NCBI GenBank assembly: GCA_965222075.1
Contig: OZ244937.1
Coordinates: 3,456,001-3,520,000, forward strand
DNA: 64,000 bases
Origin: Candidatus Latescibacterota bacterium
Lineage (GTDB): Bacteria > Latescibacterota > UBA2968 > GCA-2709665
Reading direction: 5' to 3'
Numbering within the stretch: the stretch's first letter is position 1; every line of letters begins with the position of its first letter. This document shows, one piece after another, positions 1,526 to 16,307 of this stretch. The notes beneath the pieces are model-generated. The model was given only the letters and a program-made list of their open reading frames with translations. It searched no databases and had not been told where the DNA came from. The position numbers were made by a program, and so were the translations under genes.

Positions 1526-1606
1526 GTCTAACGTCCCCGCCGTGCCCGAACCGCGAAGCGGTTGCGCGAAGGGCGTAGCCCGAAGCCGGGCACGGACGTG
1601 TTAGAC
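1526..1606 (-). repeat. attC site 1
   Basis: GTCTAAC...GTGCCCG...CGGGCAC...GTTAGAC with branched internal hairpins. Confidence 0.9.
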
Positions 1607-1663
1607 GGCGTTGGCCAAATCGTCACCACGGAGGAGATTTTTGGGCACACGGTTGCAGAGCGT

Positions 1664-3025
1664 TCAAAATGCCTCTTTCCCAACGATCTCGTAAACCCTC
1701 GCCGGATGGCGGTGATCTTTGACCTTATTGAATAGCGCTTTGGCCTTTTCCAGCATCCCGGCCCGTCCATAGAAGTAGATGAGGTTGCCAGCCTCGTTTG
1801 GTCTCCCAGTGAGGTCCCATACCTTCTCCTGCACGACCACGGCCCTGCCCCAATCACCCCTGTGGAATGCCAAACAGGACCCCATTTGCCGAAGTGCAAC
1901 GTAGGCCCATACGGTCTTTTGGCCTAGTCCGTACATGGTCTCATACACCGGATAGGCCTCATCCCACCGGTTCTGTCGAGCCAGTGACAAAGCGAGGTAG
2001 TTCAGGCACTGCTGGTCTTCAGGGGCCAAAGTGACGGCATGGCGGGCAACTTCCTCCATCTCTTCAAAGTCGCGTTTCCACAAAAACATCTGCGCCTTGG
2101 CAGTGAGAGCAACTATGTCATCAGGGTCCTTTGCAAGCCGCAGACTGCATAGCTCCAGGCATTTCTCGATTGCCGTGGCCTGCTTTTGCTGGTCGCCCGC
2201 CCATAAAACGGTAAGCTCGAACGCAACATCGATGGAGTCCGGCGCCGCTTTCGCGGCTCGTTGAAGGGTTGCCGCCTCTTCCTCGGAGGGGCCCTTGATC
2301 GGGTCATATGTCCGTCCGAGCTCCATCAATGCCTCAGGATGGTCCGGGGACACCTCCAGTGCTTCCCTGAAGCGTGCGCGTGCCTCATCCATCCTCATGT
2401 ACAATCGATCCCTCTTGCCCTGTTCCAAGAGTCGGGCAATGGTCCGTGCTGCGAATCCTTCGGGCAGATCATGCTTGCTCCTGTCATCTCTTGCCATGCG
2501 GGTGACCTCCTCCTTAAGCTGCCTGCGCGCCCTGTATAGCCGCTGTTTCACACCTGCAGGGGTCGTTCGTACCAGAAGAGCCACATCCTGAATCGAATAC
2601 CCTTCCAGATAATGCAGTGTAAACGCCTGGACGCTTTTCGCAGGAAGCCTTGAAAACAGTTCCTGGAACGCTGCATTCCGGATAACAGGCTGCTCTGGAT
2701 GTTCTCTGAGATCCGTCACCTCGACAACTGACTTCGCCACGGCTTGGTGGCGGCGATTGTCCCTCAACCTGTTGAGGCAGATGTTGCGAAGTATCTGCCC
2801 CACCCAGGATGAGAATCGAGAGTGCTCCTTCAGAGCCTCAAGCTGTTTGAAGGCCTTCAAGAATGCGTCCTGAAGAGCATCCTGTGCCTCTTCCTTAGCG
2901 TGCACATAACTTAGCGCCTGCAGGTAGAGGCGATCCTGATGGCGTAACACCAGGGCTTCGAATGCAGAAAGGCTGCCAGAGAGTGCGGCGGCGACTAGCT
3001 GGGCATCTGTGGATAGGCTTTCCAT
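1664..3025 (-). CDS. ECF sigma-70 factor with C-terminal TPR domain (cassette, copy 1)
   Basis: Region 2 (AFEALVLRHQ..AQDALQDAFLKAF..FSSWVGQILRN), region 4 (HYLEGYSIQDVA..VKQRLYRARRQL), then TPR-like helices; start placed at MESLSTD. Confidence 0.88.
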   Translation of the reverse strand: MESLSTDAQLVAAALSGSLSAFEALVLRHQDRLYLQALSYVHAKEEAQDALQDAFLKAFKQLEALKEHSRFSSWVGQILRNICLNRLRDNRRHQAVAKSVVEVTDLREHPEQPVIRNAAFQELFSRLPAKSVQAFTLHYLEGYSIQDVALLVRTTPAGVKQRLYRARRQLKEEVTRMARDDRSKHDLPEGFAARTIARLLEQGKRDRLYMRMDEARARFREALEVSPDHPEALMELGRTYDPIKGPSEEEAATLQRAAKAAPDSIDVAFELTVLWAGDQQKQATAIEKCLELCSLRLAKDPDDIVALTAKAQMFLWKRDFEEMEEVARHAVTLAPEDQQCLNYLALSLARQNRWDEAYPVYETMYGLGQKTVWAYVALRQMGSCLAFHRGDWGRAVVVQEKVWDLTGRPNEAGNLIYFYGRAGMLEKAKALFNKVKDHRHPARVYEIVGKEAF

Positions 3026-3117
3026 CGCTCTACCATTACGACACCTCAGGAGAGAGGAAGGTAACGCCGAGGAAGGATTCTTGCAGTAATCTCCGCCCGT
3101 TCGTGAGGGCAAATGCC

Positions 3118-3196
3118 GTATAACGTTCTCGGCACCCCCGAAGCCGCGAAGCGGTTTTGTGCGGAGCGAAGCGAAGCCGGGGGTGCCGTGTTAACC
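3118..3196 (-). repeat. attC site 2
   Basis: GTATAAC..GGCACCCCCG...CGGGGGTGCC..GTTAACC. Confidence 0.9.
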
Positions 3197-3260
3197 GATG
3201 TGGAGGTTTGTCGGATCACCAAAAAGTTCAAGAGGCAACCATCACCCCTTGCTTTTTTGT

Positions 3261-3566
3261 TCATTCATTTCCTGCCAGTGCTTCTGACCAACGCCTGGCC
3301 ATTGTCCTCAATTCTTCCTCATGGGCTGGCCAATCGTGAAGCGTGGCAGGATCAAAATCAGCACCATTCGGCCAGACGAGTGTATGCACCTCAGGATCAA
3401 TACGCACCTCATTAAAAAGCAATATATCCATCAGAGGTCCGAACAACTCGCCCTCAAGAACTGGACGAAAATCGATAACTCGAGTCGTTTCATCGTTGAA
3501 TCTGACTTTGATCTGATAGGTCCCAACAATCTCAAATGAAACGACTCGATAGATTGGATGACTCAT
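3261..3566 (-). CDS. DUF2442-family protein (copy 1)
   Basis: YQIKVRFNDETTRVIDF..GELFGPL..TLVWPNGADFDPATL motif. Confidence 0.85.
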   Translation of the reverse strand: MSHPIYRVVSFEIVGTYQIKVRFNDETTRVIDFRPVLEGELFGPLMDILLFNEVRIDPEVHTLVWPNGADFDPATLHDWPAHEEELRTMARRWSEALAGNE

Positions 3567-3577
3567 TCTATCCTCCC

Positions 3578-3847
3578 TTAATGAAGCGGATCGATCGGCA
3601 AGGGAGGATGCCCAGATTGGAGCCGACCCCAATCTTCAAGGAGCTCCTCCTGATGCAACTCCGCCCAGGCTTCGACGAATCGTTGCTGACGGCGTGGCAA
3701 AGTCCCTGCGATCAATTCAATGGTATCCACAGCGTAAACGGCCACTTCATCTTGATAATAGGCGTGAAAATGAGGCCGATGGTGCTGTGTTCTCGGTTCG
3801 GCAAACATGCGAATGATGATTCCGAAAAACCGAGAAATTTCAGGCAT
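3578..3847 (-). CDS. DUF4160-family protein (copy 1)
   Basis: MPEISRFFGIIIRMF..HHRPHFHAYY..WAELHQEELLEDW..IDPL motif; paired with DUF2442. Confidence 0.88.
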   Translation of the reverse strand: MPEISRFFGIIIRMFAEPRTQHHRPHFHAYYQDEVAVYAVDTIELIAGTLPRRQQRFVEAWAELHQEELLEDWGRLQSGHPPLPIDPLH

Positions 3848-3997
3848 TTGTTTTCCTTGCGATATGGATTTTATCGATGAAACCCTGCGGGAAATAAACC
3901 GGATTATGCATGGGTAAGCAAAATCCAAATTGGGATGAATGGGAGTCTGTTTTTGCCCCTCAGAGCTTGACCAATTAGCCCTTAAAACCTCCATGTC

Positions 3998-4081
3998 GGT
4001 TAACGTTCATCTGCCCCTGAACCGGCACAGCCGGTTGGGCGAAGGCCCGAATGGGCCGAAGCCAGGGGCAGGGTGTTATGC
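3998..4081 (-). repeat. attC site 3
   Basis: GGTTAAC..CTGCCCCTG...CAGGGGCAG..GTTATGC. Confidence 0.9.
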
Positions 4082-4201
4082 GGCCCCGAAGGGCCGGAGC
4101 GCCCGCAGGGTGCGGAGGGTGTGCATTCTACGCCTTGAGGACAGAAGTGCTTGGACTCTCATGCGGTGAAAAGATAATTCCCAAAGAATGAATTGCATTG
4201 G

Positions 4202-4930
4202 CTATTTGGCTTTCTCGATGACAGCTATATATCTTGGCCCCTCAGAATCAATAAAAGTAGAGGCCCTCCAACCTGTGCCAGCCAAAATATCGTGCAACTC
4301 CGCTTTGGACACAAACAGGTAATCAATCCACGGCGTTCTATGGATCTTATAGCGAATGCGCATCTTCACCTGACCCCCCATCCGACCTTGCTGACGATTG
4401 GCTCTGTGATAGGCATGGTGAAGAGGGTTCGAAGTCTGATAGGGATCCAAGGTCTCTGCGATAATGCGTCCTTTGCCAGTAGTCATGTGATAGAACTTAC
4501 GCAACAGCCACCTTGCCCGTCTGTAATTGCTCATCAGACCAAAATTGTTGCCCATCATGAGGAGGGTATCGAAGTGACCCAGGCGGGCATTCAATTGAGT
4601 GATCGACAATCTACGCACCTGCTTCACACCCCTCAATCGGCAGACCTTCACCGCCAGAGAAGATACATCGATCCCTATCACATCGTGTCCTTGATCCTGC
4701 AAATAGAGGGACATCCTCCCCGCGCCGCAGCCAATGTCTAAGGTACGCCCTATGACGTATCTCATGGCCTCCTGTTTCTGAGAGGGCCACTCTTCATAAG
4801 AAGAAAAATAGGCACTGGCCAAACTAGCGACATCAACGTACCCGTCGCTGCGCTCCACAATTTCGTATCTGTCATCCCCGCCTAAGAAATCGTAGAGTAG
4901 TTGACCGAATGCATCTGCATGTTGTTTCAT
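4202..4930 (-). CDS. Class I SAM-dependent methyltransferase (cassette)
   Basis: LDIGCGAGR motif I, VIGIDVS, FDTLLMMGNNFG. Confidence 0.88.
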   Translation of the reverse strand: MKQHADAFGQLLYDFLGGDDRYEIVERSDGYVDVASLASAYFSSYEEWPSQKQEAMRYVIGRTLDIGCGAGRMSLYLQDQGHDVIGIDVSSLAVKVCRLRGVKQVRRLSITQLNARLGHFDTLLMMGNNFGLMSNYRRARWLLRKFYHMTTGKGRIIAETLDPYQTSNPLHHAYHRANRQQGRMGGQVKMRIRYKIHRTPWIDYLFVSKAELHDILAGTGWRASTFIDSEGPRYIAVIEKAK

Positions 4931-5038
4931 GAGTTCACCGAAGATAGCCTCTTATTGGGGACATCTTGCATGGGGAATTCACTATCGGAATTTGAAGTAG
5001 GTAAAGCGTGGGGACAAATTTATCTTATTGCACATGCC

Positions 5039-5137
5039 GCATAACGTTCTCGCGGGCTGCGAACCTGCCGTAGCGAAGCGGAGGCAGGTTGGGTCGGAGG
5101 CGCGAATGCGCCGAAGCCGCAGCCCGTCGTGTTATGC
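5039..5137 (-). repeat. attC site 4
   Basis: GCATAAC..GGGCTGCG...CGCAGCCC..GTTATGC. Confidence 0.88.
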
Positions 5138-5298
5138 ATTGCTGGGGCAGGCCTCCGTCACCAAGAACCGTTCAGGGCCAACATACAGCGCACAACATTG
5201 TGTATGTTGCATCTTCCGACTCAGGTTCAATTTTCGATGGGTCTTGTAGCGGGGCGATGGGTAAACGAACAGAGGACTCTGCTTGCAAGGGGTCTCCG

Positions 5299-6291
5299 CT
5301 ATCCCAGTATAACAGCTATTCGGTTGTTCATATATTCGGTGATTTCCTTCAACTCCTGTTTGTTGTACGCCTCTTCAATGAGCCCCCAGCAGGTCAGGTA
5401 CCCAAGCGGATAGCGTAAACGATAGTACTCCAGGTGCAGCTCGTGGTCCTTATGAAGAGGGGCATCGTAGGATTTCCAAAAAGCCTCAAGACAGGAAGCC
5501 ATCAGATCCTCCCGATCGAATCCTAGATCATAGACCTCGTGGGAGAAGTGGTTGTACAATCTAGAAATATCCTGAATCCCGTACCCCGGCCCAACGCCCT
5601 CGAAGTCCAGCAGTCCCGTTACGGTATCTCGCGAAATCATGATGTTGGTTGCAGAGAAATCCCCGTGGGTTAGACAAGGCTGGACGTCTTCGCTAAAGAC
5701 CTCAATCCCTTTCCGGACCCAGCCCTCCAAGCGAGAACCCCATTTGGCAAAAGGGGTTTGAAAACTGGCTTTCACAATCTCTAATCCACGCTGTAGCTCA
5801 TATTCACGAGCTGTATGGCTGGTGTCGATTCCCTCCCGGGGTTTGACCCTGACCTCACCGTCTTTATATGCCAATCCTCCACCAAAGTGAGAGAAAGCAC
5901 TGATTTGGTGGAACGAAGAAAGTATTGTTCCAATCTGGGAATAGACAGCAACGGCTTCCTGGCGGGATAAACTCTCGCCCGCGTCTCCGAGGTTCTGCCC
6001 GTTGATGTACTCTTTGGTTACAAACTCCCCGGGCATGAGGCCAGCACGTAACCCTGTTTCGAGCACTTTGGGAACAGGAAGCTCAGTCTTGTCCTCCAGT
6101 ACGTTGATGACGAGGAGCTCGTGCTCAAGAGCATTAAGTTGACCGGGCGGGACATATTGGACCACAAATGGAGCAGTGTCCCTTGGGTGCACGAGATAAG
6201 TGGGTTTGCAGATGCCGCCTTCCAATTGCTCGAAATGCGCAATCGGTCTCCGGATAACCTCCTCAATGACATCAAGAGTCACTTCAGCCAT
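5299..6291 (-). CDS. APH/choline-kinase-like phosphotransferase (two-gene cassette)
   Basis: LPVPKVL, HGDFSATNIM, GLLDFE motifs. Confidence 0.85.
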   Translation of the reverse strand: MAEVTLDVIEEVIRRPIAHFEQLEGGICKPTYLVHPRDTAPFVVQYVPPGQLNALEHELLVINVLEDKTELPVPKVLETGLRAGLMPGEFVTKEYINGQNLGDAGESLSRQEAVAVYSQIGTILSSFHQISAFSHFGGGLAYKDGEVRVKPREGIDTSHTAREYELQRGLEIVKASFQTPFAKWGSRLEGWVRKGIEVFSEDVQPCLTHGDFSATNIMISRDTVTGLLDFEGVGPGYGIQDISRLYNHFSHEVYDLGFDREDLMASCLEAFWKSYDAPLHKDHELHLEYYRLRYPLGYLTCWGLIEEAYNKQELKEITEYMNNRIAVILG

Positions 6292-6321
6292 TTAGCCCCG
6301 TGTTGAGTTTGTTGTGCGGGA

Positions 6322-7113
6322 TCAGGATATCAGCTGCTTGGCCAAATCAATACCAGGATCATATCCCTCCAAAGCTGGTTCACCCTGAGAAACAGCAATG
6401 GTCGTGACCATTCGGTAGACCAGCGCGCGGATCAGTAGCTGGGGGAAGTGTTCAACGTGAGAGACATGCTCAATTAGACCTGACGGATCTGCATCCCGCC
6501 AACACACGGCATCCGCTACAACGATAGCAGACGCAAACCCAACTGGACGCCAATAGGGCGAAAAATCGATCACGGCCGGGGAAAGTCCTTCAGCGAAGAG
6601 GATATTCTCCGTAAGGTCACCGTGAATAAGCTGCGATGTGGTTACCATCGGGGAGCGCATGCGGAGTAACTCGGTGAGCCGCTTGTTTGCGAATGGCGGC
6701 TCTATCTCCTCCCAAGCTACAAAATCACCAAGTGACCAAGGATCATCTGAGCGATCGTCCAGGAATGGCGCCCGAGGCAGGTGCTCAATTGCCTTATGGA
6801 ATCGGTCTCCGGTGAGAATTACTTCTGCCCATCTTTCCTGCTCAGGGTGTTCGCCCTCAACCGCTTCTTGGGCACACCACCCGTCAACAACCCATCGTCC
6901 ATCGAAGGCCCGTACGGGAAGTGGCAGCCTAAAGCCTTCTGCTTTAACTGTTGATAGATGGTCGGCGAACCAACGCCAAACGTCAGGACTTTCGTCCGGT
7001 TTGAGGATAAGGTCTCCTGCCAGCCAGCAGCAACCCTCCCCGCCAGCTAGTTGTACCAAATCTGCGGTAACATTGAACGCTTGAATTACCCTATCAGGGG
7101 GCCGGGGGCTCAT
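6322..7113 (-). CDS. APH-like phosphotransferase (two-gene cassette)
   Basis: QLIHGDLTENILF, AVIDFSPYWRP motifs. Confidence 0.85.
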   Translation of the reverse strand: MSPRPPDRVIQAFNVTADLVQLAGGEGCCWLAGDLILKPDESPDVWRWFADHLSTVKAEGFRLPLPVRAFDGRWVVDGWCAQEAVEGEHPEQERWAEVILTGDRFHKAIEHLPRAPFLDDRSDDPWSLGDFVAWEEIEPPFANKRLTELLRMRSPMVTTSQLIHGDLTENILFAEGLSPAVIDFSPYWRPVGFASAIVVADAVCWRDADPSGLIEHVSHVEHFPQLLIRALVYRMVTTIAVSQGEPALEGYDPGIDLAKQLIS

Positions 7114-7184
7114 CTGTTATGATTCGGCAAGAGGTGGACATTCTTAGTTTGTGCGCAACTGTGGTGCTGTCTTGCCCCAGTTTT

Positions 7185-7301
7185 GCATAACGTTCTCGGC
7201 ACTCCCGACCTGCCGGCCTGTCCTCCGGAGCTGCGTAGCAGCGAAGGAGGGAGGCAGGTTTCTGCGGAGCGTCAGCGAAGCTCGGGAGTGCCGTGTTAAG
7301 C
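7185..7301 (-). repeat. attC site 5 (117 bp, nested palindromes in loop)
   Basis: GCATAAC..GGCACTCCCGA...TCGGGAGTGCC..GTTAAGC. Confidence 0.88.
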
Positions 7302-8344
7302 GCATGTGCTGGTTTTGGTGTCAGGAAATCGACTGGCGGTGCCGATCAATGGATCTTAACGAGCGAAATTCGTCCCAATGTTTAATCGAGGAAATATCAC
7401 CTGATGTCTTTATGGATCCGGGCCGATCATCTGATCTGTCGAAGTAGACCGCTTGCATACCGAGCTGCTTTGGTGCAGTATAATCGTTCTGTAGGCTGTC
7501 ACCGATGAATAAGACTCTATTGGCTTGATCAGCTTGCACATTCGCAAGCCCCTGTTGATAAATCTGTTTACCTGGCTTTTTCCATCCGAAGTCCGAGCGG
7601 GCGCGGTCCCATAGTGTGACAAAAAAGATAGCATAACATCCTCAATAATTTCTTATGGTTAGAGGAAAGTTTGGGAAATTTACTTCTAACCAACAAGAAT
7701 CAGAAAGGACGTTATGCTGGATCATATCATAGATCAAGTGACAGAAAAAGTCAACCAAAAGTTGCCTAAGATGGTGAGCGACTTGCAAGAGAGTCTTTCG
7801 TTTGCCGACTTGGAGCATGGCTTGATCGGTTTGCTCCAGGAGGTGGTGGGCATCGTCGTGAGTCCGGTGTTGAATCAGGTTTTTCAGGATGAGGCCTTGC
7901 TGTTTGGGCTGCGTCAGGCAGCCGGTAGTATGGGCTACAGATATAAGGAACATCGGCCTTTGACCGTACGGATTTTGGAAGGTGTAGAAGTTGAAGTCTC
8001 TTCGCCCTATTTCGTTAAGCGGGGTCGCAAACGGGGCAGGAAGAAGCGGGGTCCCAATGGTCGAGGGTGTCATCTGTTATTGGATGTGCTTGGGTTTATC
8101 GGTCAGTGCAGTCCGGAGTTTGTAGATGAAGCTGTGAAGTTGGCCTTGTTATGCCCCTCCTTTGAGGTGGCCACTCAGGTGTTGGATGCCCGTCAGATAA
8201 AGCTGGACAAAAAAACCCTTCGAAGATTGTGCAAAGCTTTAGGCGAATTGGGTCTGGAGCAGAGAGCCACGATTGCTCTAAAAGATGAGCTCTCCTTTTC
8301 AGGTCGCACGGTGTATATCGGCATCGATGGGGGTCGGATGCGGA

Positions 8345-8371
8345 CCTGCCCGCGCGCAGCGCGCAGGCGGG
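8345..8371. repeat. Micro-palindrome insertion 1 (27 bp, in frame)
   Basis: CCTGCCCGCGCGCAGCGCGCAGGCGGG between A|T. Confidence 0.8.
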
Positions 8372-8534
8372 TGCGTGAGCCCAAGCGGGGTCGAAAGCCG
8401 AAGGGAAAGAAATATCCCCGATATGATACACCTTGGAGAGAACCCAAGTTGTTTACCATCTACATGTTGGACGAAAAAGGTCGCGTCGAAAAATCGTGGA
8501 CGCCTATCCACGATGCGACTCGGGGCAATGCCGA

Positions 8535-8561
8535 CCTGCCTGTGCGGTGCACGCAGACAGG
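8535..8561. repeat. Micro-palindrome insertion 2 (27 bp, in frame)
   Basis: CCTGCCTGTGCGGTGCACGCAGACAGG between A|T. Confidence 0.88.
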
Positions 8562-8853
8562 TTTGATGTTTGAGATGCTGGAAGCTACCCTTTTGGAACT
8601 GCCCCTGCAACAGGCCGATCGGGTCGTGTTTATCGCCGATGGGGCAGAATGGATCTGGCCGAGGGTAGAGCGTCTGATCTGGAGGTTGGGGGTGCCTCCA
8701 AGCAAGGCGATCCAGATCCTCGACTATTACCATAATAGTGAAACCCTCTTTGAACTGGTGCAACTCCAACCGAAGCTTAAAGAAAAGGCACAACGTGCCC
8801 TGTATGAGACGTGGAAGACCTGGATGTGGAATGGGGAGCTTTTAAAACTCCGA

Positions 8854-8889
8854 CCTGCCTGTGCGTGCTGTCTCACGCACGCAGACAGG
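8854..8889. repeat. Micro-palindrome insertion 3 (36 bp, in frame)
   Basis: CCTGCCTGTGCGTGCTGTCTCACGCACGCAGACAGG between A|A. Confidence 0.88.
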
Positions 8890-8969
8890 AAAGAAGTGCT
8901 CCAGCAGCTTCGCGGGAAAAAACGAAAACAGGCCATCACATCCCTGAACCATTTCGACCGTCATGCGCA

Positions 8970-8994
8970 CCTGCCTGTGCCGATGGCAGACAGG
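8970..8994. repeat. Micro-palindrome insertion 4 (25 bp, frameshifting)
   Basis: CCTGCCTGTGCCGATGGCAGACAGG between A|T; removal restores HAHRMRYPTFK. Confidence 0.9.
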
Positions 8995-9035
8995 TCGAAT
9001 GCGCTATCCTACCTTCAAAGAACAGGGCCTTCCCA

Positions 9036-9062
9036 CCTGTCTGCGTGCCACGCACAGGCAGG
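9036..9062. repeat. Micro-palindrome insertion 5 (27 bp, reverse orientation)
   Basis: CCTGTCTGCGTGCCACGCACAGGCAGG between A|T; removal restores GLPIGSG. Confidence 0.9.
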
Positions 9063-9300
9063 TCGGAAGTGGACACGTCGAAAGCGCCATCCGTCGTGTC
9101 ATCAATCTTCGGATCAAAGCACCAGGCACGTTCTGGAAAAAAGACATGGGCGAATACTTCCTGTTTCTGCGCTCACAGTTGATCTGTGGAAGATGGCCTA
9201 TCTTCTTCCAGAATGTCACAGGACGATACCGAACGGGTGAGTTTGCCCAACATCTCTTTCCCTCTTCTCCGAAAATGGGTTTGCTCAAGACAGGGACAGA

Positions 9301-9325
9301 CCTGCCTGTGCCGCCGGCAGACAGG
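9301..9325. repeat. Micro-palindrome insertion 6 (25 bp)
   Basis: CCTGCCTGTGCCGCCGGCAGACAGG between A|T. Confidence 0.88.
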
Positions 9326-9935
9326 TGATCACTAACGCAATTAACCGCTTATTCAACAACTTAACACGACTTTCTATATGTCATACTTTGGGACTGCACC
9401 CAGTCCGAGCTGCCTAACATAAATTCAAAATATTTCCCAAGACCGGACTTTTGGATGCTCCGAGAAGGACCATCTGGAAGAAAGAAGTTCGACACGACAG
9501 CCAATCGGCACTTATCTATCCAGAAGTCGAGCATTTGCACAACGCCGGGTGTAAGTCTAAGGGTCTTGGGAAATTCCTGTTCGAAGTGCTCAATCATTTC
9601 ACAAACCAAACCTTCGATTTCACCTCTTCTCTCAGGGGCCTTCTCCTCAAGAACTGCACGGAAACGTTCCGGCAACGTAACTTCGCGCCAGGTCCCGTCG
9701 GACCACTGGTTCTCCCGCCACCTATCATAATCTTGCCTGAAATCAGTTGAAGAAGAATAGAACCCCGCCTCTACTGGCATGTGAGTGAGAAACCCGATCC
9801 CGGATTCATCTCCTGTGTCATCGAAATTGTCAATCAGTGTATTGAAGCAGTCGAAGAATATCCAATCAAACGAGCTCATTTTCCGGTATTTTGCACCCTT
9901 TGTCTTTTCGTTGAGCTAGCCAAAACCAACATTGC

Positions 9936-10014
9936 ACTTAACGTTCTCGGCACCCCCGAAGCCGCGAAGCGGTTTTGTGCGGAGCGAAGCGAAGCCGGGG
10001 GTGCCGTGTTAACC
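9936..10014 (-). repeat. attC site 6 (same body as attC2)
   Basis: ACTTAAC...GTTAACC; part of the duplicated cassette. Confidence 0.9.
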
Positions 10015-10078
10015 GATGTGGAGGTTTGTCGGATCACCAAAAAGTTCAAGAGGCAACCATCACCCCTTGCTTTTTTGT

Positions 10079-10384
10079 TCATTCATTTCCTGCCAGTGCT
10101 TCTGACCAACGCCTGGCCATTGTCCTCAATTCTTCCTCATGGGCTGGCCAATCGTGAAGCGTGGCAGGATCAAAATCAGCACCATTCGGCCAGACGAGTG
10201 TATGCACCTCAGGATCAATACGCACCTCATTAAAAAGCAATATATCCATCAGAGGTCCGAACAACTCGCCCTCAAGAACTGGACGAAAATCGATAACTCG
10301 AGTCGTTTCATCGTTGAATCTGACTTTGATCTGATAGGTCCCAACAATCTCAAATGAAACGACTCGATAGATTGGATGACTCAT
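10079..10384 (-). CDS. DUF2442-family protein (copy 2)
   Basis: Identical translation to 3261-3566. Confidence 0.85.
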   Translation of the reverse strand: MSHPIYRVVSFEIVGTYQIKVRFNDETTRVIDFRPVLEGELFGPLMDILLFNEVRIDPEVHTLVWPNGADFDPATLHDWPAHEEELRTMARRWSEALAGNE

Positions 10385-10395
10385 TCTATCCTCCC

Positions 10396-10665
10396 TTAAT
10401 GAAGCGGATCGATCGGCAAGGGAGGATGCCCAGATTGGAGCCGACCCCAATCTTCAAGGAGCTCCTCCTGATGCAACTCCGCCCAGGCTTCGACGAATCG
10501 TTGCTGACGGCGTGGCAAAGTCCCTGCGATCAATTCAATGGTATCCACAGCGTAAACGGCCACTTCATCTTGATAATAGGCGTGAAAATGAGGCCGATGG
10601 TGCTGTGTTCTCGGTTCGGCAAACATGCGAATGATGATTCCGAAAAACCGAGAAATTTCAGGCAT
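10396..10665 (-). CDS. DUF4160-family protein (copy 2)
   Basis: Identical translation to 3578-3847. Confidence 0.88.
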   Translation of the reverse strand: MPEISRFFGIIIRMFAEPRTQHHRPHFHAYYQDEVAVYAVDTIELIAGTLPRRQQRFVEAWAELHQEELLEDWGRLQSGHPPLPIDPLH

Positions 10666-10815
10666 TTGTTTTCCTTGCGATATGGATTTTATCGATGAAA
10701 TCCTGCGGGAAATAAACCGGATTATGCATGGGTAAGCAAAATCCAAATTGGGATGAATGGGAGTCTGTTTTTGCCCCTCAGAGCTTGACCAATTAGCCCT
10801 TAAAACCTCCATGTC

Positions 10816-10905
10816 GGTTAACGTTCTACCGATTGCCGAACCTGCGAAGCAGGTTGCCGAAGGCCAAGCGCCGAATGGCGCGCAGCGGCAAACGAGTTGT
10901 TAGAT
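10816..10905 (-). repeat. attC site 7
   Basis: GGTTAAC..TTGCCG...CGGCAA..GTTAGAT. Confidence 0.85.
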
Positions 10906-10945
10906 GAAGTGGGATCTAATTCGTATTCCAATATCAAACCACCTG

Positions 10946-11005
10946 GATTAAGGCTACAGCTCAGCCGCGGTGCTTGTCACCGTCGGCTGCAGTGCCTTGT
11001 TGGCC
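10946..11005 (-). repeat. Degenerate classical 60-bp attC inside the GNAT cassette
   Basis: Minus strand GGCCAACAAGGCACTGCAGCCGACGG...CCGCGGCTGAGCTGTAGCCTTAATC; R' mutated GTT to CTT; matching GTTGGCC upstream of the gene (11491-11497). Confidence 0.7.
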
Positions 11006-11476
11006 GTTTATTCCTTTGTCCAGGTCCAGTCTGTACCGGCATGTCGGCCCGAGTTCTCCTGGCTCCCGTTCGGTTTCGATGGTGTCGACGTATGTCGCCC
11101 CGATCAACTCACAGGTCCTTCTGGATGCGTCGTTATCGGGACGGCAAGTGATCAACAGCGAGTTCAGTCCATGGCTAAGAGCAAGGGGGAACAGGAGGCG
11201 GCAACTGCGGGCAGCACATCTGTTCCCACGGTATTCCTCCTGAACATCGTAGCTCAGGTTGCCTCCATACTGTTCGAGCCTTTCCGTGCACCGGGTCCTG
11301 AGGCAGATGCTGCCGATCGTCGCCCCGCTGCTAATAAGCCGCATCTCGAAACGGTACTCGGGCACCCGTCCCTTCTCAGAATCGGACGGAAGCGTCTCGG
11401 TGAGGACAAGCTCAAGATCTCCGTCGACCAAGTGTCCTGGATCGTGGAATTCACATTCGGGATTCTTCCGGGTCAT
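10961..11476 (-). CDS. GNAT-family acetyltransferase (cassette)
   Basis: GNLSYDVQEEYRGNRCA, LLITCRPDNDASRRTCELIGA. Confidence 0.85.
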   Translation of the reverse strand: MTRKNPECEFHDPGHLVDGDLELVLTETLPSDSEKGRVPEYRFEMRLISSGATIGSICLRTRCTERLEQYGGNLSYDVQEEYRGNRCAARSCRLLFPLALSHGLNSLLITCRPDNDASRRTCELIGATYVDTIETEREPGELGPTCRYRLDLDKGINGQQGTAADGDKHRG

Positions 11477-11579
11477 CCGGTATTCTCTGCGGCCAACTAG
11501 TGATTGAGCGGTGAATATGCAGAATATCTCCCGCTATCTGGAGATATTCTGCAATGATCTGATTTTACGTTTCCATTTC

Positions 11580-11667
11580 ATCTAACGTTCTCGGCACCCA
11601 CGAACCTGCCGGAGGTAGGTTGGGCGGAAGCCCGAACGGGCTGGAGCCGTGGGTGCTCGTGTTACGC
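11580..11667 (-). repeat. attC site 8
   Basis: ATCTAAC..GCACCCACG...CGTGGGTGC..GTTACGC. Confidence 0.88.
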
Positions 11668-11717
11668 GCCGTGTCTGTCCTGAGTACACACCAAAACAGT
11701 TCGGCCAAGTTCAAACT

Positions 11718-12359
11718 TCACGAGTACATCGACAGGTCATCCCAGTCCGAGGACAGCGTCGGTCGAGGTAGCTTCGGATCGGGGTGCCAGCCTTCCCACC
11801 CGGCGGAGAAGGGACCTACGTTCCGCTCAATCTCCTCGACCGCACGCTGCCCCTCTGCACGAATCGCAATGGCATCCTCGAGACTCACTCTCCCGTCCTG
11901 CACGCATATGTCGAGTTCGTCCTTGTCTTTCCATCTCCACTCTCGGTTTGGTTCAACGAGGATGTCAAGCTGATGGTCCCTCAAATCGAAGCCCAGCGGT
12001 GTGCGTGTTAGTCTGCTCTGCATGTTCACATACCACCCAGAGAACTCCCGATCTCTTGACCATATGACGCAAGTTGCCCGATGCTGATCGGGTCTGATGA
12101 CGATCAAGAGCTCGCCCCACTGCCAAGTCGAATCCTGAAGCGTCCAGTTGTCCTCGGTCCACCGCCGTGGCGTTCCTGGCGTATGGTTTAGCAGCACCGG
12201 ATTCTTTGTAGGTGTATCCATTGGGAGCCAGAGGACGATCTGGGTCTCAGAATCTTCGACTACGGTGACGGGCTTCACATCGATAATTTGGCCATGCTCA
12301 TCAGTTTCTCGATAGAGTATGCAATCACCACATCGGAACCTGTCAGCTCCTTCTCCCAT
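11718..12359 (-). CDS. DUF402-domain protein (cassette)
   Basis: FSGWYVNMQ..FDLRDHQLDILV..WRWKDKDEL motif. Confidence 0.85.
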   Translation of the reverse strand: MGEGADRFRCGDCILYRETDEHGQIIDVKPVTVVEDSETQIVLWLPMDTPTKNPVLLNHTPGTPRRWTEDNWTLQDSTWQWGELLIVIRPDQHRATCVIWSRDREFSGWYVNMQSRLTRTPLGFDLRDHQLDILVEPNREWRWKDKDELDICVQDGRVSLEDAIAIRAEGQRAVEEIERNVGPFSAGWEGWHPDPKLPRPTLSSDWDDLSMYS

Positions 12360-12416
12360 CTAGATTCTTCTCCTCCGAAAAATCAACCAGCCTGGCAAGA
12401 ATTCCTAAGGCATGGC

Positions 12417-12497
12417 GCGTAACGTCCCCGCCGTGCCCGAACCGCGAAGCGGTTGCGCGAAGGGCGTAGCCCGAAGCCGGGCACGGACGTGTTAGAC
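12417..12497 (-). repeat. attC site 9 (same body as attC1)
   Basis: GCGTAAC...GTTAGAC. Confidence 0.9.
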
Positions 12498-12554
12498 GGC
12501 GTTGGCCAAATCGTCACCACGGAGGAGATTTTTGGGCACACGGTTGCAGAGCGT

Positions 12555-13916
12555 TCAAAATGCCTCTTTCCCAACGATCTCGTAAACCCTCGCCGGATGG
12601 CGGTGATCTTTGACCTTATTGAATAGCGCTTTGGCCTTTTCCAGCATCCCGGCCCGTCCATAGAAGTAGATGAGGTTGCCAGCCTCGTTTGGTCTCCCAG
12701 TGAGGTCCCATACCTTCTCCTGCACGACCACGGCCCTGCCCCAATCACCCCTGTGGAATGCCAAACAGGACCCCATTTGCCGAAGTGCAACGTAGGCCCA
12801 TACGGTCTTTTGGCCTAGTCCGTACATGGTCTCATACACCGGATAGGCCTCATCCCACCGGTTCTGTCGAGCCAGTGACAAAGCGAGGTAGTTCAGGCAC
12901 TGCTGGTCTTCAGGGGCCAAAGTGACGGCATGGCGGGCAACTTCCTCCATCTCTTCAAAGTCGCGTTTCCACAAAAACATCTGCGCCTTGGCAGTGAGAG
13001 CAACTATGTCATCAGGGTCCTTTGCAAGCCGCAGACTGCATAGCTCCAGGCATTTCTCGATTGCCGTGGCCTGCTTTTGCTGGTCGCCCGCCCATAAAAC
13101 GGTAAGCTCGAACGCAACATCGATGGAGTCCGGCGCCGCTTTCGCGGCTCGTTGAAGGGTTGCCGCCTCTTCCTCGGAGGGGCCCTTGATCGGGTCATAT
13201 GTCCGTCCGAGCTCCATCAATGCCTCAGGATGGTCCGGGGACACCTCCAGTGCTTCCCTGAAGCGTGCGCGTGCCTCATCCATCCTCATGTACAATCGAT
13301 CCCTCTTGCCCTGTTCCAAGAGTCGGGCAATGGTCCGTGCTGCGAATCCTTCGGGCAGATCATGCTTGCTCCTGTCATCTCTTGCCATGCGGGTGACCTC
13401 CTCCTTAAGCTGCCTGCGCGCCCTGTATAGCCGCTGTTTCACACCTGCAGGGGTCGTTCGTACCAGAAGAGCCACATCCTGAATCGAATACCCTTCCAGA
13501 TAATGCAGTGTAAACGCCTGGACGCTTTTCGCAGGAAGCCTTGAAAACAGTTCCTGGAACGCTGCATTCCGGATAACAGGCTGCTCTGGATGTTCTCTGA
13601 GATCCGTCACCTCGACAACTGACTTCGCCACGGCTTGGTGGCGGCGATTGTCCCTCAACCTGTTGAGGCAGATGTTGCGAAGTATCTGCCCCACCCAGGA
13701 TGAGAATCGAGAGTGCTCCTTCAGAGCCTCAAGCTGTTTGAAGGCCTTCAAGAATGCGTCCTGAAGAGCATCCTGTGCCTCTTCCTTAGCGTGCACATAA
13801 CTTAGCGCCTGCAGGTAGAGGCGATCCTGATGGCGTAACACCAGGGCTTCGAATGCAGAAAGGCTGCCAGAGAGTGCGGCGGCGACTAGCTGGGCATCTG
13901 TGGATAGGCTTTCCAT
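12555..13916 (-). CDS. ECF sigma-70 factor with TPR domain (cassette, copy 2)
   Basis: Identical translation to 1664-3025. Confidence 0.88.
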   Translation of the reverse strand: MESLSTDAQLVAAALSGSLSAFEALVLRHQDRLYLQALSYVHAKEEAQDALQDAFLKAFKQLEALKEHSRFSSWVGQILRNICLNRLRDNRRHQAVAKSVVEVTDLREHPEQPVIRNAAFQELFSRLPAKSVQAFTLHYLEGYSIQDVALLVRTTPAGVKQRLYRARRQLKEEVTRMARDDRSKHDLPEGFAARTIARLLEQGKRDRLYMRMDEARARFREALEVSPDHPEALMELGRTYDPIKGPSEEEAATLQRAAKAAPDSIDVAFELTVLWAGDQQKQATAIEKCLELCSLRLAKDPDDIVALTAKAQMFLWKRDFEEMEEVARHAVTLAPEDQQCLNYLALSLARQNRWDEAYPVYETMYGLGQKTVWAYVALRQMGSCLAFHRGDWGRAVVVQEKVWDLTGRPNEAGNLIYFYGRAGMLEKAKALFNKVKDHRHPARVYEIVGKEAF

Positions 13917-14008
13917 CGCTCTACCATTACGACACCTCAGGAGAGAGGAAGGTAACGCCGAGGAAGGATTCTTGCAGTAATCTCCGCCCGTTCGTGAGGG
14001 CAAATGCC

Positions 14009-14103
14009 GTCTAACGTCTCACGGTTTGCGAACCCCGAGCTTGTCGAGGGGTTGCCGGAGGCCAAGGCGCGACAGCGCCGCAGCGAAAACCGCTGTGTTA
14101 TGT
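14009..14103 (-). repeat. attC site 10
   Basis: GTCTAAC..CGGTTTGCG...CGAAAACCG..GTTATGT. Confidence 0.85.
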
Positions 14104-14126
14104 GCTGTGCAATTCAAACGCAGTCA

Positions 14127-14951
14127 CTACCATGCCTCCGAGCGAGCAGGTTGCAGAGCAAATTGCGTGATTGTGTCGTGAGCCCGCCCCGTGCAGTCAT
14201 GATGCACATACACCGTGTCGTTGATGACGATTCGGCGATTGTCTGGATACTTGGCGACCAAGTCCCGGTCGCGGAAAAACCTCCCATCGTATCGCCGGAA
14301 GAAGACAGTCCTTCCACCTGCTTCAACGAAGGCTTCCACCAACTCGCCACCGTTTGGTGCGGAGAGTCCTGGAATGGCATCGAATACACGTAGACAGTGG
14401 AACCTGTGATCGCCGATAGTCACGTCGTAGGTTCCAGCACCAATCCCTTCCCCGTCTGTTGTTTTGTAGGATCCATCGCTCTGCCGCTCGTATTGGCCTC
14501 CGTCGATCATTCGACGGTTCATAACACCGCCCCAGTTGGCCTCGAAGTGCCTGTCGCCCTGCACCTCGACCAAGCGTTTGCCGTCTACGCTCCTCGTGAC
14601 ACCAACCCAACGCGCACCGACGTCATCCAACAGTGCGTACATATAGCCAGGATCGAATTCCAACGGGATGTCTTCACGCTTCACATGTTGTTCCACTCGA
14701 AGTTCGATACAATCGATGTCTCGGAGTGTAGCCGATCCTACGGACACGATTTTAACGACCTCTGTCAGCTCAAGTGTATCCGCTTCATACACGGCCCACT
14801 TGCAGTGTTCACCCAACCTGGGAACGGCAAACCACCACTGCAGTTCCGGGCAATTGACCTCTTGCAATCGCGCACTGCTTTCCTGGATCGTGACCTGTGG
14901 TCGGGTCAATGGAAAACCATCAACCATCTCGCTGCCGATTTCAGTGTTCAT
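14127..14951 (-). CDS. Hypothetical protein (cassette); start uncertain
   Basis: ORF fills the space between attC10 and attC11. Confidence 0.75.
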   Translation of the reverse strand: MNTEIGSEMVDGFPLTRPQVTIQESSARLQEVNCPELQWWFAVPRLGEHCKWAVYEADTLELTEVVKIVSVGSATLRDIDCIELRVEQHVKREDIPLEFDPGYMYALLDDVGARWVGVTRSVDGKRLVEVQGDRHFEANWGGVMNRRMIDGGQYERQSDGSYKTTDGEGIGAGTYDVTIGDHRFHCLRVFDAIPGLSAPNGGELVEAFVEAGGRTVFFRRYDGRFFRDRDLVAKYPDNRRIVINDTVYVHHDCTGRAHDTITQFALQPARSEAW

Positions 14952-14994
14952 AAGGACTGTAGGAGAGCGGCGCGGTCTTTGTCTTTTGCATGGC

Positions 14995-15092
14995 ACATAA
15001 CGATTTGACGGTTTGCGAACCCCGAGCTTGCCGAGGGGTTGCCCGAAGGGCCAAGGCGCGTAGCGGCGCAGCGCAACACCGTGCTGTTAGAG
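14995..15092 (-). repeat. attC site 11
   Basis: ACATAAC..CGGTTTGCG...CGCAACACCG..GTTAGAG. Confidence 0.85.
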
Positions 15093-15116
15093 GACGTGCA
15101 GGTAATCTCCCCGATC

Positions 15117-16151
15117 TCAGAGCGCTACCGTCGTCTCGTTCAATGTCCGAAGAAGCCTTCTCACTTCGGATTCATATGATGGTCCACCGTGCCCGATGGC
15201 CTTTCGTGCAGTCATTGTCCAAATGAGTTCCTGTAGGCTGTAAAGGAGATGAACCGACTCCCACGACGGCCCATGAAGTCCCCTTGTGTGCAGGTACTCA
15301 CTCCAAAGAGCCTTTCGAAACGCTGAAAAATCGTCTCGGTAGCGCCAAAGCTCTCCTCCCCACTCGCCGAAGTTAAACTCGAGGACGGGATTTCCCACAC
15401 CAGCGTTTCCCCAATCCAGGATCCCGGTTACTTCTAGGTCTCGATCTGACCGGACCAAGATCTGGTCTTCGTGGACATCACCGTGAAGAAGCACATTGTC
15501 CATCTTGGCAAGCTCTGAAAGGGCCTGTTGCCACTTGCCGATACTGGTTTCAGAAGTCAGCTCTTTGAATTCGTCCTCCGCGATATTGGTAGCGTGGTCC
15601 CGGACTAATGATGCAATTAAACTCAGCACTTCCCCCAAGGAACTCAATTGGAGCGCCTTGTACATCCATCGATACGAGTCGGCATGATCACCGGCGAGAT
15701 CCTGTGACAATGGTTTCAGGAAGTCTGTTTCCGGCCCCAATTGAAGGTTGTGCCAAAATCCCGCAAGCCGTCCAACTGTGCGGAGAACTTCTTCATAACC
15801 TTCCGAACGTAAGGATCGTTCGATCGTGCCAAGCAGCACCCCATGTAGGCGCGTGACAACTCCAAACCGGTAAAGGCTCAACTCGTAATTTTCGACCGAT
15901 CTGACGAGCTTGGAGACCGGCAACCCGTCCAGTTCATTGAACAGTTCATAAAGCTCAAGTTCGGTACTCAGTGAACACTGGTACTTGGGATGCCTTGGAA
16001 ATAGAAAGACGAGATCCGGGGACTTGATAATGTGCTTGGACCAGCCGGTAAAATCGGGTTCAAGCTCTCCGAGCGTCAGTCCGAACTCTTCACAGAAACG
16101 ATTGAGGTGAGGCCTGATCAAAATGGCTTCGATTGCCGCAGAGTTTTTCAT
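15117..16151 (-). CDS. APH-like phosphotransferase (cassette)
   Basis: LLHGDVHEDQILV, GILDWGNAGVGNP. Confidence 0.85.
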   Translation of the reverse strand: MKNSAAIEAILIRPHLNRFCEEFGLTLGELEPDFTGWSKHIIKSPDLVFLFPRHPKYQCSLSTELELYELFNELDGLPVSKLVRSVENYELSLYRFGVVTRLHGVLLGTIERSLRSEGYEEVLRTVGRLAGFWHNLQLGPETDFLKPLSQDLAGDHADSYRWMYKALQLSSLGEVLSLIASLVRDHATNIAEDEFKELTSETSIGKWQQALSELAKMDNVLLHGDVHEDQILVRSDRDLEVTGILDWGNAGVGNPVLEFNFGEWGGELWRYRDDFSAFRKALWSEYLHTRGLHGPSWESVHLLYSLQELIWTMTARKAIGHGGPSYESEVRRLLRTLNETTVAL

Positions 16152-16177
16152 GTCTTTGTGATCCGAACCTGCATGTC

Positions 16178-16307
16178 CTCTAACGTCCTCCGGGTTGCCG
16201 AAGTGGCCGTGCATAGGGAAAGGAACCAGTGGTTTTACAATCAGTCAAGCATAAACTCACGGCCATTTAGGCGTAGCGAAACGGAGCCGGTCAACCCGGT
16301 GTTAACC
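16178..16307 (-). repeat. attC site 12 (130 bp, AT-rich loop)
   Basis: CTCTAAC..CCGGGTTG..TGGCCGTG...CACGGCCA..CAACCCGG..GTTAACC. Confidence 0.82.

Follow-up and report, generated by a model that had tools for sequence, protein, structure and literature searches.

Long outer stem and fixed position-11 wobble in the attC sites of an integron-type cassette array family from Latescibacterota

The integrase of integrons, IntI, recombines attC sites on their folded bottom strand. The choice of this strand and the recognition of the site are explained by extrahelical bases, an unpaired spacer, and a domain specific to IntI which reads them. Here we describe a cassette array of the integron type in Candidatus Latescibacterota bacterium, within a stretch of 64,000 nucleotides (contig OZ244937.1, positions 3,456,001 to 3,520,000) which we call the window. 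The genome of the window is G000, other G numbers are related genomes and L numbers are fetched loci. The attC sites of this array belong to a family whose trait is a long outer stem, continuing beyond the 7-bp R box, with a fixed wobble at position 11. Position n is the nth base of the left end of a cassette (+ strand) compared with the reverse complement of its right end, and positions 1–7 are the R box.

The attC sites of class 1 and Vibrio integrons resemble those of the window in several respects: RYYYAAC...GTTRRRY boxes which bound an imperfect hairpin, an open reading frame (ORF) followed by attC, a crossover within the box, which lets a cassette's first bases pair with its own R'' box, a few paired bases beyond the box, and a G after AAC on the bottom strand. 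The present family differs in that pairing continues to about positions 15–18, with a fixed T.G pair at position 11 and a fixed C-G pair at position 8. The predicted hairpin would also depart from the textbook attC, which has a spacer and two or three extrahelical bases: it would have a 4-nt bulge in the 5' arm, at most single-base bulges in the 3' arm, and a three-way junction at its end. In the genomes examined, no array of the family lies beside a classical IntI.

Clusters of attC sites without an integron integrase are called CALIN in the definition given by Cury et al. 2016. The window array has this character, with 12 attC sites and no integron integrase nearby, and most of the attC-rich relatives also lack a classical IntI. 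The family differs from CALIN in that, in 11 genomes, its arrays are headed by an IntI-like recombinase which the classical definition of IntI would miss.

The array occupies positions 1526–16306 of the window and contains 11 cassettes, nine of which are distinct. On the + strand every cassette opens with GTTRRRY and closes with RYYYAAC, each of the 12 attC sites starts with an RYYYAAC-type box and ends with a GTTRRRY-type box with which it can pair, and the ORFs of all 11 cassettes are on the − strand. The two copies of the ECF cassette have the left repeat in common (1526–1606 and 12417–12497) and different right repeats, and the identity between duplicated cassettes begins and stops within TAAC. 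It follows that every unit consists of an ORF and, after it, its own attC, and that the crossover falls inside the box, as is standard for integron cassettes; the crossover is between G and TT on the top strand and between AA and C on the bottom strand. Since the duplicated cassettes carry attC on the left and the longest ORF lies on the − strand orientation in 129 of 140 lineage cassettes (described below), the − strand is the top (coding) strand of the window array and the + strand is the bottom strand. The ends do not behave as the terminal inverted repeats of a transposon or of a miniature inverted-repeat transposable element: the arms match only within their own cassette, each arm abuts an attC box, and no duplication of flanking bases was seen at the window cassettes.

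The sites and cassettes are listed below. R1 is a covariance model built from ten window attC sites without their flanks. Four of the sites were also folded against shuffled sequence; z-scores are −3.2 to −5.4 for three of them and only −1.3 for the site at 14995–15092.

1526–1606, + strand: attC site 1, of ECF cassette copy 1; boxes GTCTAAC and GTTAGAC (R1 match and fold)
1600–3124, − strand: ECF sigma/TPR cassette, copy 1; arms 1600–1616 and 3108–3124; position 11 is G/A, extra arm mismatches at positions 5 and 14
3118–3196, + strand: attC site 2 (boxes, R1 match)
3190–4004, − strand: DUF4160 + DUF2442 cassette, copy 1; arms 3190–3209 and 3985–4004; in both copies, 20 arm positions with 2 mismatches, at 10 (T/C) and 11 (G/A)
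3998–4081, + strand: attC site 3 (boxes, R1 match)
4075–5045, − strand: methyltransferase cassette; left arm 4075–4084 plus 4119–4127, right arm 5027–5045
5039–5137, + strand: attC site 4 (boxes, R1 match, fold)
5131–7191, − strand: cassette with two ORFs (APH1-2), an APH-family kinase at 5302–6291 and 6325–7113 without a Pfam match; arms 5131–5149 and 7173–7191, 19 positions with 3 mismatches (9, 10, 11)
7185–7301, + strand: attC site 5 (boxes, R1 match)
7295–9942, − strand: 'HAD' cassette, interrupted by an insertion sequence (IS); arms about 7295–7318 and 9920–9942, 1-nt shift needed
9936–10014, + strand: attC site 6 (boxes, R1 match)
10008–10822, − strand: DUF4160 + DUF2442 cassette, copy 2; arms 10008–10027 and 10803–10822
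10816–10905, + strand: attC site 7 (boxes, R1 match)
10899–11586, − strand: GNAT acetyltransferase cassette; arms 10899–10912 and 11573–11586, 14 positions with 1 mismatch
11580–11667, + strand: attC site 8 (boxes, R1 match, fold)
11661–12423, − strand: DUF402 cassette; arms 11661–11676 and 12408–12423, 16 positions with 2 mismatches
12417–12497, + strand: attC site 9, whose centre is that of site 1 and which travels with the ECF cassette
12491–14015, − strand: ECF sigma/TPR cassette, copy 2; arms 12491–12507 and 13999–14015, 17 positions with 2 mismatches
14009–14103, + strand: attC site 10 (boxes, R1 match)
14097–15001, − strand: cassette of a hypothetical protein without family; arms 14097–14112 and 14986–15001, 16 positions with 2 mismatches
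14995–15092, + strand: attC site 11 (boxes, R1 match, fold)
15086–16184, − strand: APH-family kinase cassette ('APH3'); arms 15086–15103 and 16167–16184, 18 positions, the sole mismatch being position 11
16178–16306, + strand: attC site 12, with which the array ends; for the arm after it (from 16300) there is no partner

A preliminary description of this DNA had claimed that the two ends of every cassette are complementary beyond the R box, and each arm that it quotes is indeed present at its place in the window. The arms of the methyltransferase cassette pair once a 34-bp insert (4085–4118) is skipped, and those of the 'HAD' cassette pair with a shift of one nucleotide. The G/A combination at position 11, said to be constant, is seen without gaps in seven of the nine distinct cassettes; the other two are indel cases, and the methyltransferase arms show it only after the insert is skipped. 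The arms had also been said to differ in sequence from one cassette to the next. This is true of positions 9, 10 and 12–18, which covary, and does not hold at positions 8 and 11–12, which are conserved in the family.

The pairing of the outer positions was compared with that of shuffled ends, by scoring the nine variable positions 9, 10 and 12–18 in cognate ends and in randomly re-paired ends (10,000 permutations). In the nine window cassettes, 6.1 of 9 positions match on average, compared to 3.3 (sd 0.58) after re-pairing, and none of the 10,000 permutations reaches the observed match.

The same trait is found throughout a lineage. R1 matches 52 sites in G000, in several arrays, and has matches in 39 of 61 related genomes; in a sample of 151 genomes from across the phylum, 62 have matches, most of them belonging to three families of a single class. 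The arrays of the relatives gave 109 cassettes, 17 others being skipped because a box could not be anchored. Merging 42 cassettes from G000 with 102 unique ones from ten relatives gave a lineage set of 143 unique cassettes from 11 genomes; both boxes could be anchored in 166 unique sites. In this set the cognate match is 5.70, versus 2.90 (sd 0.12) for re-paired ends (0 of 10,000 permutations). Position 11 is G/A in 114 of the 143 cassettes; taken singly, 124 left arms have G there and 130 right arms (read as reverse complement) have A. At position 8, G is found in 142 of the left arms and in 133 of the right ones.

A strict subset consists of the 96 lineage cassettes whose two 7-bp boxes match at 7/7 positions. 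The identity between their arms is 0.85 at position 9, 0.58 at position 10 and 0.00 at position 11, then 0.83, 0.81, 0.82, 0.75, 0.64, 0.51 and 0.47 at positions 12 to 18, and it is near chance from about position 19. When mismatches at positions 10 and 11 are allowed, 61 of the 96 have a continuous run of 14 or more, and position 11 is G/A in 83. The mutual information between the arms exceeds that of all 1000 shuffles at positions 9, 10 and 12–18. Positions 8 and 11 do not covary and are simply conserved.

Could this pairing be a neutral footprint? If attC sites were born as long hairpins, or by a copying step, the outer pairs might be drifting relics without a role, an idea which the preliminary description had also raised. 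The length of the stem does differ between cassettes, and pairing fades gradually from position 12 to position 19, with no fixed stop length, a pattern that would likewise be expected if selection on the outermost pairs is weak or lacking. Moreover, pairs of homologous cassettes show a single clear compensatory double change, at position 17. However, a plain copying step would leave no fixed mismatch, and in none of the 96 cassettes with intact boxes do the two arms have the same base at position 11, while position 8 hardly varies. Positions 9 and 12–18 covary, with all four pair types, across 11 genomes and three families, which also speaks against relics. The arms are also better conserved than the interiors of the cassettes: in homologous cassettes from different genomes, whose interiors are 77–91% identical, the left arms are unchanged over at least the first 16 positions. 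This sample is small, and it favors constraint over drift. The footprint idea finds no specific support in the analysis, and we consider it unlikely.

Another possibility is that the arms are just the ordinary extension of R-box pairing. Bouvier 2009 indicates, in its introduction, that most cassettes self-pair beyond the 7-nt boxes, over a total of 9–11 consecutive complementary nucleotides, and names Rowe-Magnus 2003 and Sundstrom 1991 as sources. For a direct comparison, control cassettes were taken from loci with a classical IntI. R1 gives only two weak matches on 60 loci with a classical IntI; since it is too lineage-specific for finding attC sites in general, a fold-based scanner was written, which in its strict setting recovers 10 of the 12 window sites with two false positives. 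It was applied to the 76 loci of at least 3 kb among 80 loci encoding IntI relatives from many phyla. The scanner misplaces some boundaries (it chose an inner hairpin for the oxa2 site of plasmid R46), and for this reason only cassettes with a 7/7 box match were accepted, the same filter being used for the lineage set. This left 80 control cassettes, then 78 after cleaning, from 33 loci.

In these 78 controls, the identity is 0.81, 0.71, 0.62, 0.47 and 0.45 at positions 8 to 12, and from position 13 it is at chance level (0.14–0.31), versus 0.81–0.47 at positions 13–18 in the present family. At position 11, the two arms are identical in 31 of the 62 controls that could be oriented by their ORF, a wobble on the bottom strand is present in 4 and the opposite type in 4, compared to a wobble in 83 of the 96 lineage cassettes. 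Reading by hand gives the same picture. Eight distinct Pseudoalteromonas cassettes pair over 9–11 positions (the arm of a ninth is N-masked), two Vibrio cassettes pair over 9 and 11 positions, and the class 1 sample, limited to the three distinct cassettes of plasmid R46, has no pairing beyond position 12. The statement that the canonical attC ends at the R box was therefore too strong, considering the 9–11 nucleotides of Bouvier 2009 and the controls, which pair to about position 12. On whether canonical cassettes already share the extension, the answer is divided: they share a short one, which is ordinary and already in print; the continuation to about positions 15–18 and the fixed wobble are not seen in these controls. 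Because the controls are at chance from position 13 and have the wobble in 4 of 62 cases, these two features look lineage-specific. A literature search, with supplements outside its scope, found no description of a fixed wobble or of arms of 15–18 bp. It is very unlikely that the ordinary extension accounts for the whole pattern.

The preliminary description had proposed that the longer stem forms fully only in the excised circle, and that it gives G.T on one strand and A.C on the other. Both points are supported. For 90 unique cassettes, the right end, the cassette's own attC and the left arm were joined by a script, as in an in silico circle. The median number of outer pairs in register is 9 in the circle, 0 in the array and 2 with a non-cognate arm, and the mean fold energies are −41.4, −32.0 and −35.7 kcal/mol, respectively. 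If the + strand is taken as the bottom strand, the pair at position 11 is G.T on it and A.C on the other strand. The bottom strand folds into a more stable structure than the top strand in 86 of the 90 circles, by −4.8 kcal/mol on average, of which −3.7 is contributed by the core attC, the share of the arms being small; when only the arms are considered, the bottom strand is the more stable one in 78 of 90, the difference being −1.1 kcal/mol on average. The position-11 wobble is plausible as a strand determinant; its computed energetic weight is small, about 1 kcal/mol in favor of the bottom strand. In the predicted folds, the first internal loop has 4 nt in the 5' arm and 0 nt in the 3' arm in 53 of the 90 sites, and further unpaired bases in the 3' arm are absent in 32 and limited to one in 42. 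A G after AAC opposite a T before GTT is present in 158 of the 166 lineage sites; as this G is also found in 53 of 63 sites from other integrons, it is not special to the present family.

A mutational origin of the wobble was considered too: deamination of cytosine on an exposed single strand would turn G-C into G.T. This agrees with the enrichment of G.T pairs on the bottom strand throughout the site (in the core, 1.74 per site on the bottom versus 0.40 on the top, with more on the bottom in 71 of 90 and fewer in 3), and with the excess of wobble-type mismatches over the opposite type at positions 9–10. However, the two types of transition mismatch are about equally frequent at positions 12–18, which argues against a general deamination bias, and the conservation of position 11 on each arm, by the counts given above, is a sign of selection and not of random damage. 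The asymmetry being position-specific, deamination was rejected as the main cause and is highly improbable as an explanation. Finally, the A at position 11 might be that of a conserved ATG start codon, which the other arm could not follow. This idea is hardly credible and was rejected, for although ATG is the commonest top-strand triplet at positions 11–13 (51 of 140) and in the DUF4160 cassette opens a frame which runs into the gene, 89 of 140 cassettes have another triplet (ATT 21, AGC 19, ATC 10, others), only 7 of the 51 ATGs are in frame with the longest ORF and lead into it, the median open frame is 15 codons, and the G on the other arm is left unexplained.

Which enzyme could act on these sites? 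In G000, no integron integrase scores above 265 bits, the cut-off of TIGR02249, which corresponds to the classical IntI with its additional domain of about 35 residues. The only two full-length tyrosine recombinases of this genome are both distant from the arrays. Classical IntI is encoded in 6 of the 61 related genomes, and no attC of the family lies near it at the places covered, in G004, G054 and G060 (within 16–20 kb) and on three short contigs (131 kb in total). A search for arrays beside the classical IntIs of the relatives gave none of the present family, and the fold-based scanner gave nothing convincing there.

An array of G003 holds a recombinase of 322 amino acids which has 36% identity to IntI along its entire sequence (E 1e-54) and is closer to IntI than are the Xer-like proteins of the same genome (30–35%, about E 1e-23). 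According to the alignment it lacks the IntI insertion, and it scores 241 bits with TIGR02249, in two stretches. Five further full-length members score 197–228 bits, also in two stretches each, and truncated ones score lower. All six full-length recombinases adjacent to arrays therefore fall below the cut-off for a classical integron integrase (197–241 bits) and lack the insertion. Relatives of the G003 protein, with at least 44% identity, are encoded in 16 of the 61 genomes.

At 12 loci in 11 genomes, a gene of this insertion-less, IntI-like type is located 0.8–4.8 kb from the first attC of the family. It points toward the array, in the direction of the cassettes, in 10 of the 12: G000 (a fragment), G002, G004 (two loci), G018, G038 (broken), G044, G047, G058 (internal stop) and G060. 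It is divergent in G003 and G057 (internal stop). Known integrons with an integrase gene in this orientation encode, to our knowledge, a classical IntI that contains the insertion, which the present recombinases lack.

The far arm of the first cassette was found at seven of the nine array heads that could be examined, with at least 10 of 14 outer positions matching, and six of these seven first cassettes have G/A at position 11. In G000, G002, G044, G047 and G058, which belong to three families, the far arm ends with AAC and is directly followed by a conserved sequence rich in CCGAAC/GTTCGG palindromes, about 40–145 bp from the recombinase gene. From its sequence and place, this is a putative attI-like site. 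In G000 it is located as follows:

G000:5300935–5300962: putative attI-like site, the only one in G000, beside a recombinase fragment
G000:5300935–5301393: the same attI-like site with a 148-aa IntI-like recombinase fragment, at the head of an array of seven sites (L004)

The adjacency of the genes to the arrays and to the attI-like site suggests that this clade of insertion-less IntI-like recombinases works with cassette arrays. The enzymes can also be compared to Xer/XerA (NCBIfam NF040815, 'site-specific tyrosine recombinase/integron integrase'), with which they score 191–225 bits for a cut-off of 220, one of eight tested passing, and which likewise lacks the IntI insertion. They differ in being closer to IntI than the genome's own Xer-like proteins are, and in lying beside arrays and an attI-like site instead of a dif-like site. 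The duplex arms to which Xer-type enzymes bind measure about 11 bp, a length that would suit an arm paired to positions 11–13.

The recombinases at L129:10101–11231, L130:8643–10004 and L132:8230–9447 carry a conserved N-terminal extension of about 90–150 residues, with the motif YPG..GR.LV...Y.P...IKT.PGR.W, which has no counterpart in IntI1. G007 encodes six copies of a 314-aa insertion-less IntI-like recombinase (L007:12370–15792, L124, L125 and three more), of which five are in or beside attC arrays. In the three copies examined it is followed by an IS91-family Y2 transposase; this linkage makes these three copies part of another mobile element, and the protein was rejected as the cassette recombinase.

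We favor, with moderate confidence, an explanation which joins the long split stem, the fixed wobble, a recombinase-bound arm and an insertion-less IntI-like partner. The stem of the folded bottom strand continues past the 7-bp R box for about 6–11 more base pairs. The crossover lies inside this stem, so half of the outer stem is at the far end of the cassette; in the array the ends look like imperfect terminal inverted repeats, and the full stem would form only in the excised circle. Positions 8 (C-G) and 11–12 are fixed in the whole family, and positions 9, 10 and 12–18 are variable but matched within each cassette. Positions 1–13 would be the duplex arm to which the R-box-cleaving recombinase monomer binds. 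On the bottom strand, position 11 pairs a T of the 5' arm with a G of the 3' arm, hence a wobble there and an A.C mismatch on the top strand. Located one helical turn from the cleavage point, the T.G wobble would break the two-fold symmetry and leave the bottom strand alone with a paired arm that has T at position 11; with a Watson-Crick pair, the cleavable arms of the two strands would carry one and the same base. The cassette-specific outer pairs would stabilize the hairpin of the free circle for insertion at attI, and the partner enzyme would be the insertion-less IntI-like tyrosine recombinase which heads the arrays of the relatives.

Several observations weigh against this explanation. 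Binding, cleavage and strand choice are deduced by analogy with IntI and Xer. In G000, all copies of the array-type recombinase are fragments, and neither a tyrosine recombinase match nor an attI-like site was found in or beside the window array. At L131, L134 and L135 the insertion-less recombinase is present with no attC of the family within about 8 kb, and the two divergent genes depart from the common orientation. Position 11 is not G/A in 13 of the 96 cassettes with intact boxes. To these must be added the gradual fading of the stem, the scarcity of compensatory changes, the predominance of the core attC in the strand bias, the boundary errors of the scanner and the small class 1 sample, all mentioned above.

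The window array continues upstream, where ten further attC sites are located beyond an IS which cuts it, at G000:3446747–3455171. The neighboring and inserted features are:

3–1388, − strand: DDE transposase (DDE_Tnp_1_4, Pfam) of the IS that cuts the array
7714–9237, + strand: IS in the 'HAD' cassette, with a 508-aa UPF0236-family ORF (Pfam)
16405–18753: ABC permease gene, which abuts the right end of the array

The match of a neighboring permease and tblastn hits to plasmids lean to Bacteroidota, but weakly. The HAD label of the cassette at 7295–9942 was not confirmed, since its ORF at 9364–9879 has no Pfam match. The UPF0236 frame contains several copies, seen by eye, of a palindrome of about 30 nt of the type GACCTGCC...GGCAGGTC (near 8341–8380, 8531–8565, 8855–8890, 8971–8995, 9040–9065 and 9300–9325), which look like small palindromic elements inserted in the frame. 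Another palindrome, CGCTAGCG, occurs once in the whole genome of G000 for about 150 occurrences expected, a strong avoidance, and HIP1 is not in excess. The 34-bp insert of the methyltransferase cassette is rich in G+C and splits the left arm exactly after position 10, beside the wobble position.

In G007, G057 and G044, 'cassettes' of about 2.1 kb have a recurrent right arm which does not match. Pfam shows an IS110-family transposase there; a group II intron was rejected, as there is no Rfam match. The IS110-family (DEDD) element lies at the 5' end of a cassette, beside the attC box, at L007:8415–10527, and similar ones are present in L009 and L021 (G007), L014 (G057) and L024 (G044). Its end sequence is nearly identical in several arrays, and it looks like an attC-targeting IS of the IS1111/IS110 kind.

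The duplicated cassettes of the window inform on the history of the array. Between the two ECF copies the interiors show 100% identity, and position 5 of the right arm is the sole difference in their arms. The end arms of the two DUF4160/DUF2442 copies (3190–4004 and 10008–10822) are identical, the comparison being limited to the arms. These twins point to recent movement or duplication of cassettes, in a genome which now has recombinase fragments only.

The arms provide an easy test, within the sequence itself, of whether two ends come from one cassette, and this is useful for spotting insertions and rearrangements, such as the 34-bp insert, the IS of the window and the IS110-family insertions in the relatives. 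More broadly, strand choice and site recognition would have a second solution, open to test, in a long paired arm with a fixed wobble. We propose, tentatively and as a possibility we hold to be somewhat less than even, that these systems form a separate branch, with an insertion-less recombinase, an attI-like CCGAAC/GTTCGG site, and an attC which marks its strand by a fixed G.T in a long R arm and not by bulges. Since arrays are headed by a recombinase which the classical-IntI definition misses, some 'CALIN' may be complete systems of another type. If the separate branch is real, many arrays that are filed as integrase-less CALIN are complete or recently complete systems, and the reading of integrase-less attC clusters in genome surveys would change.

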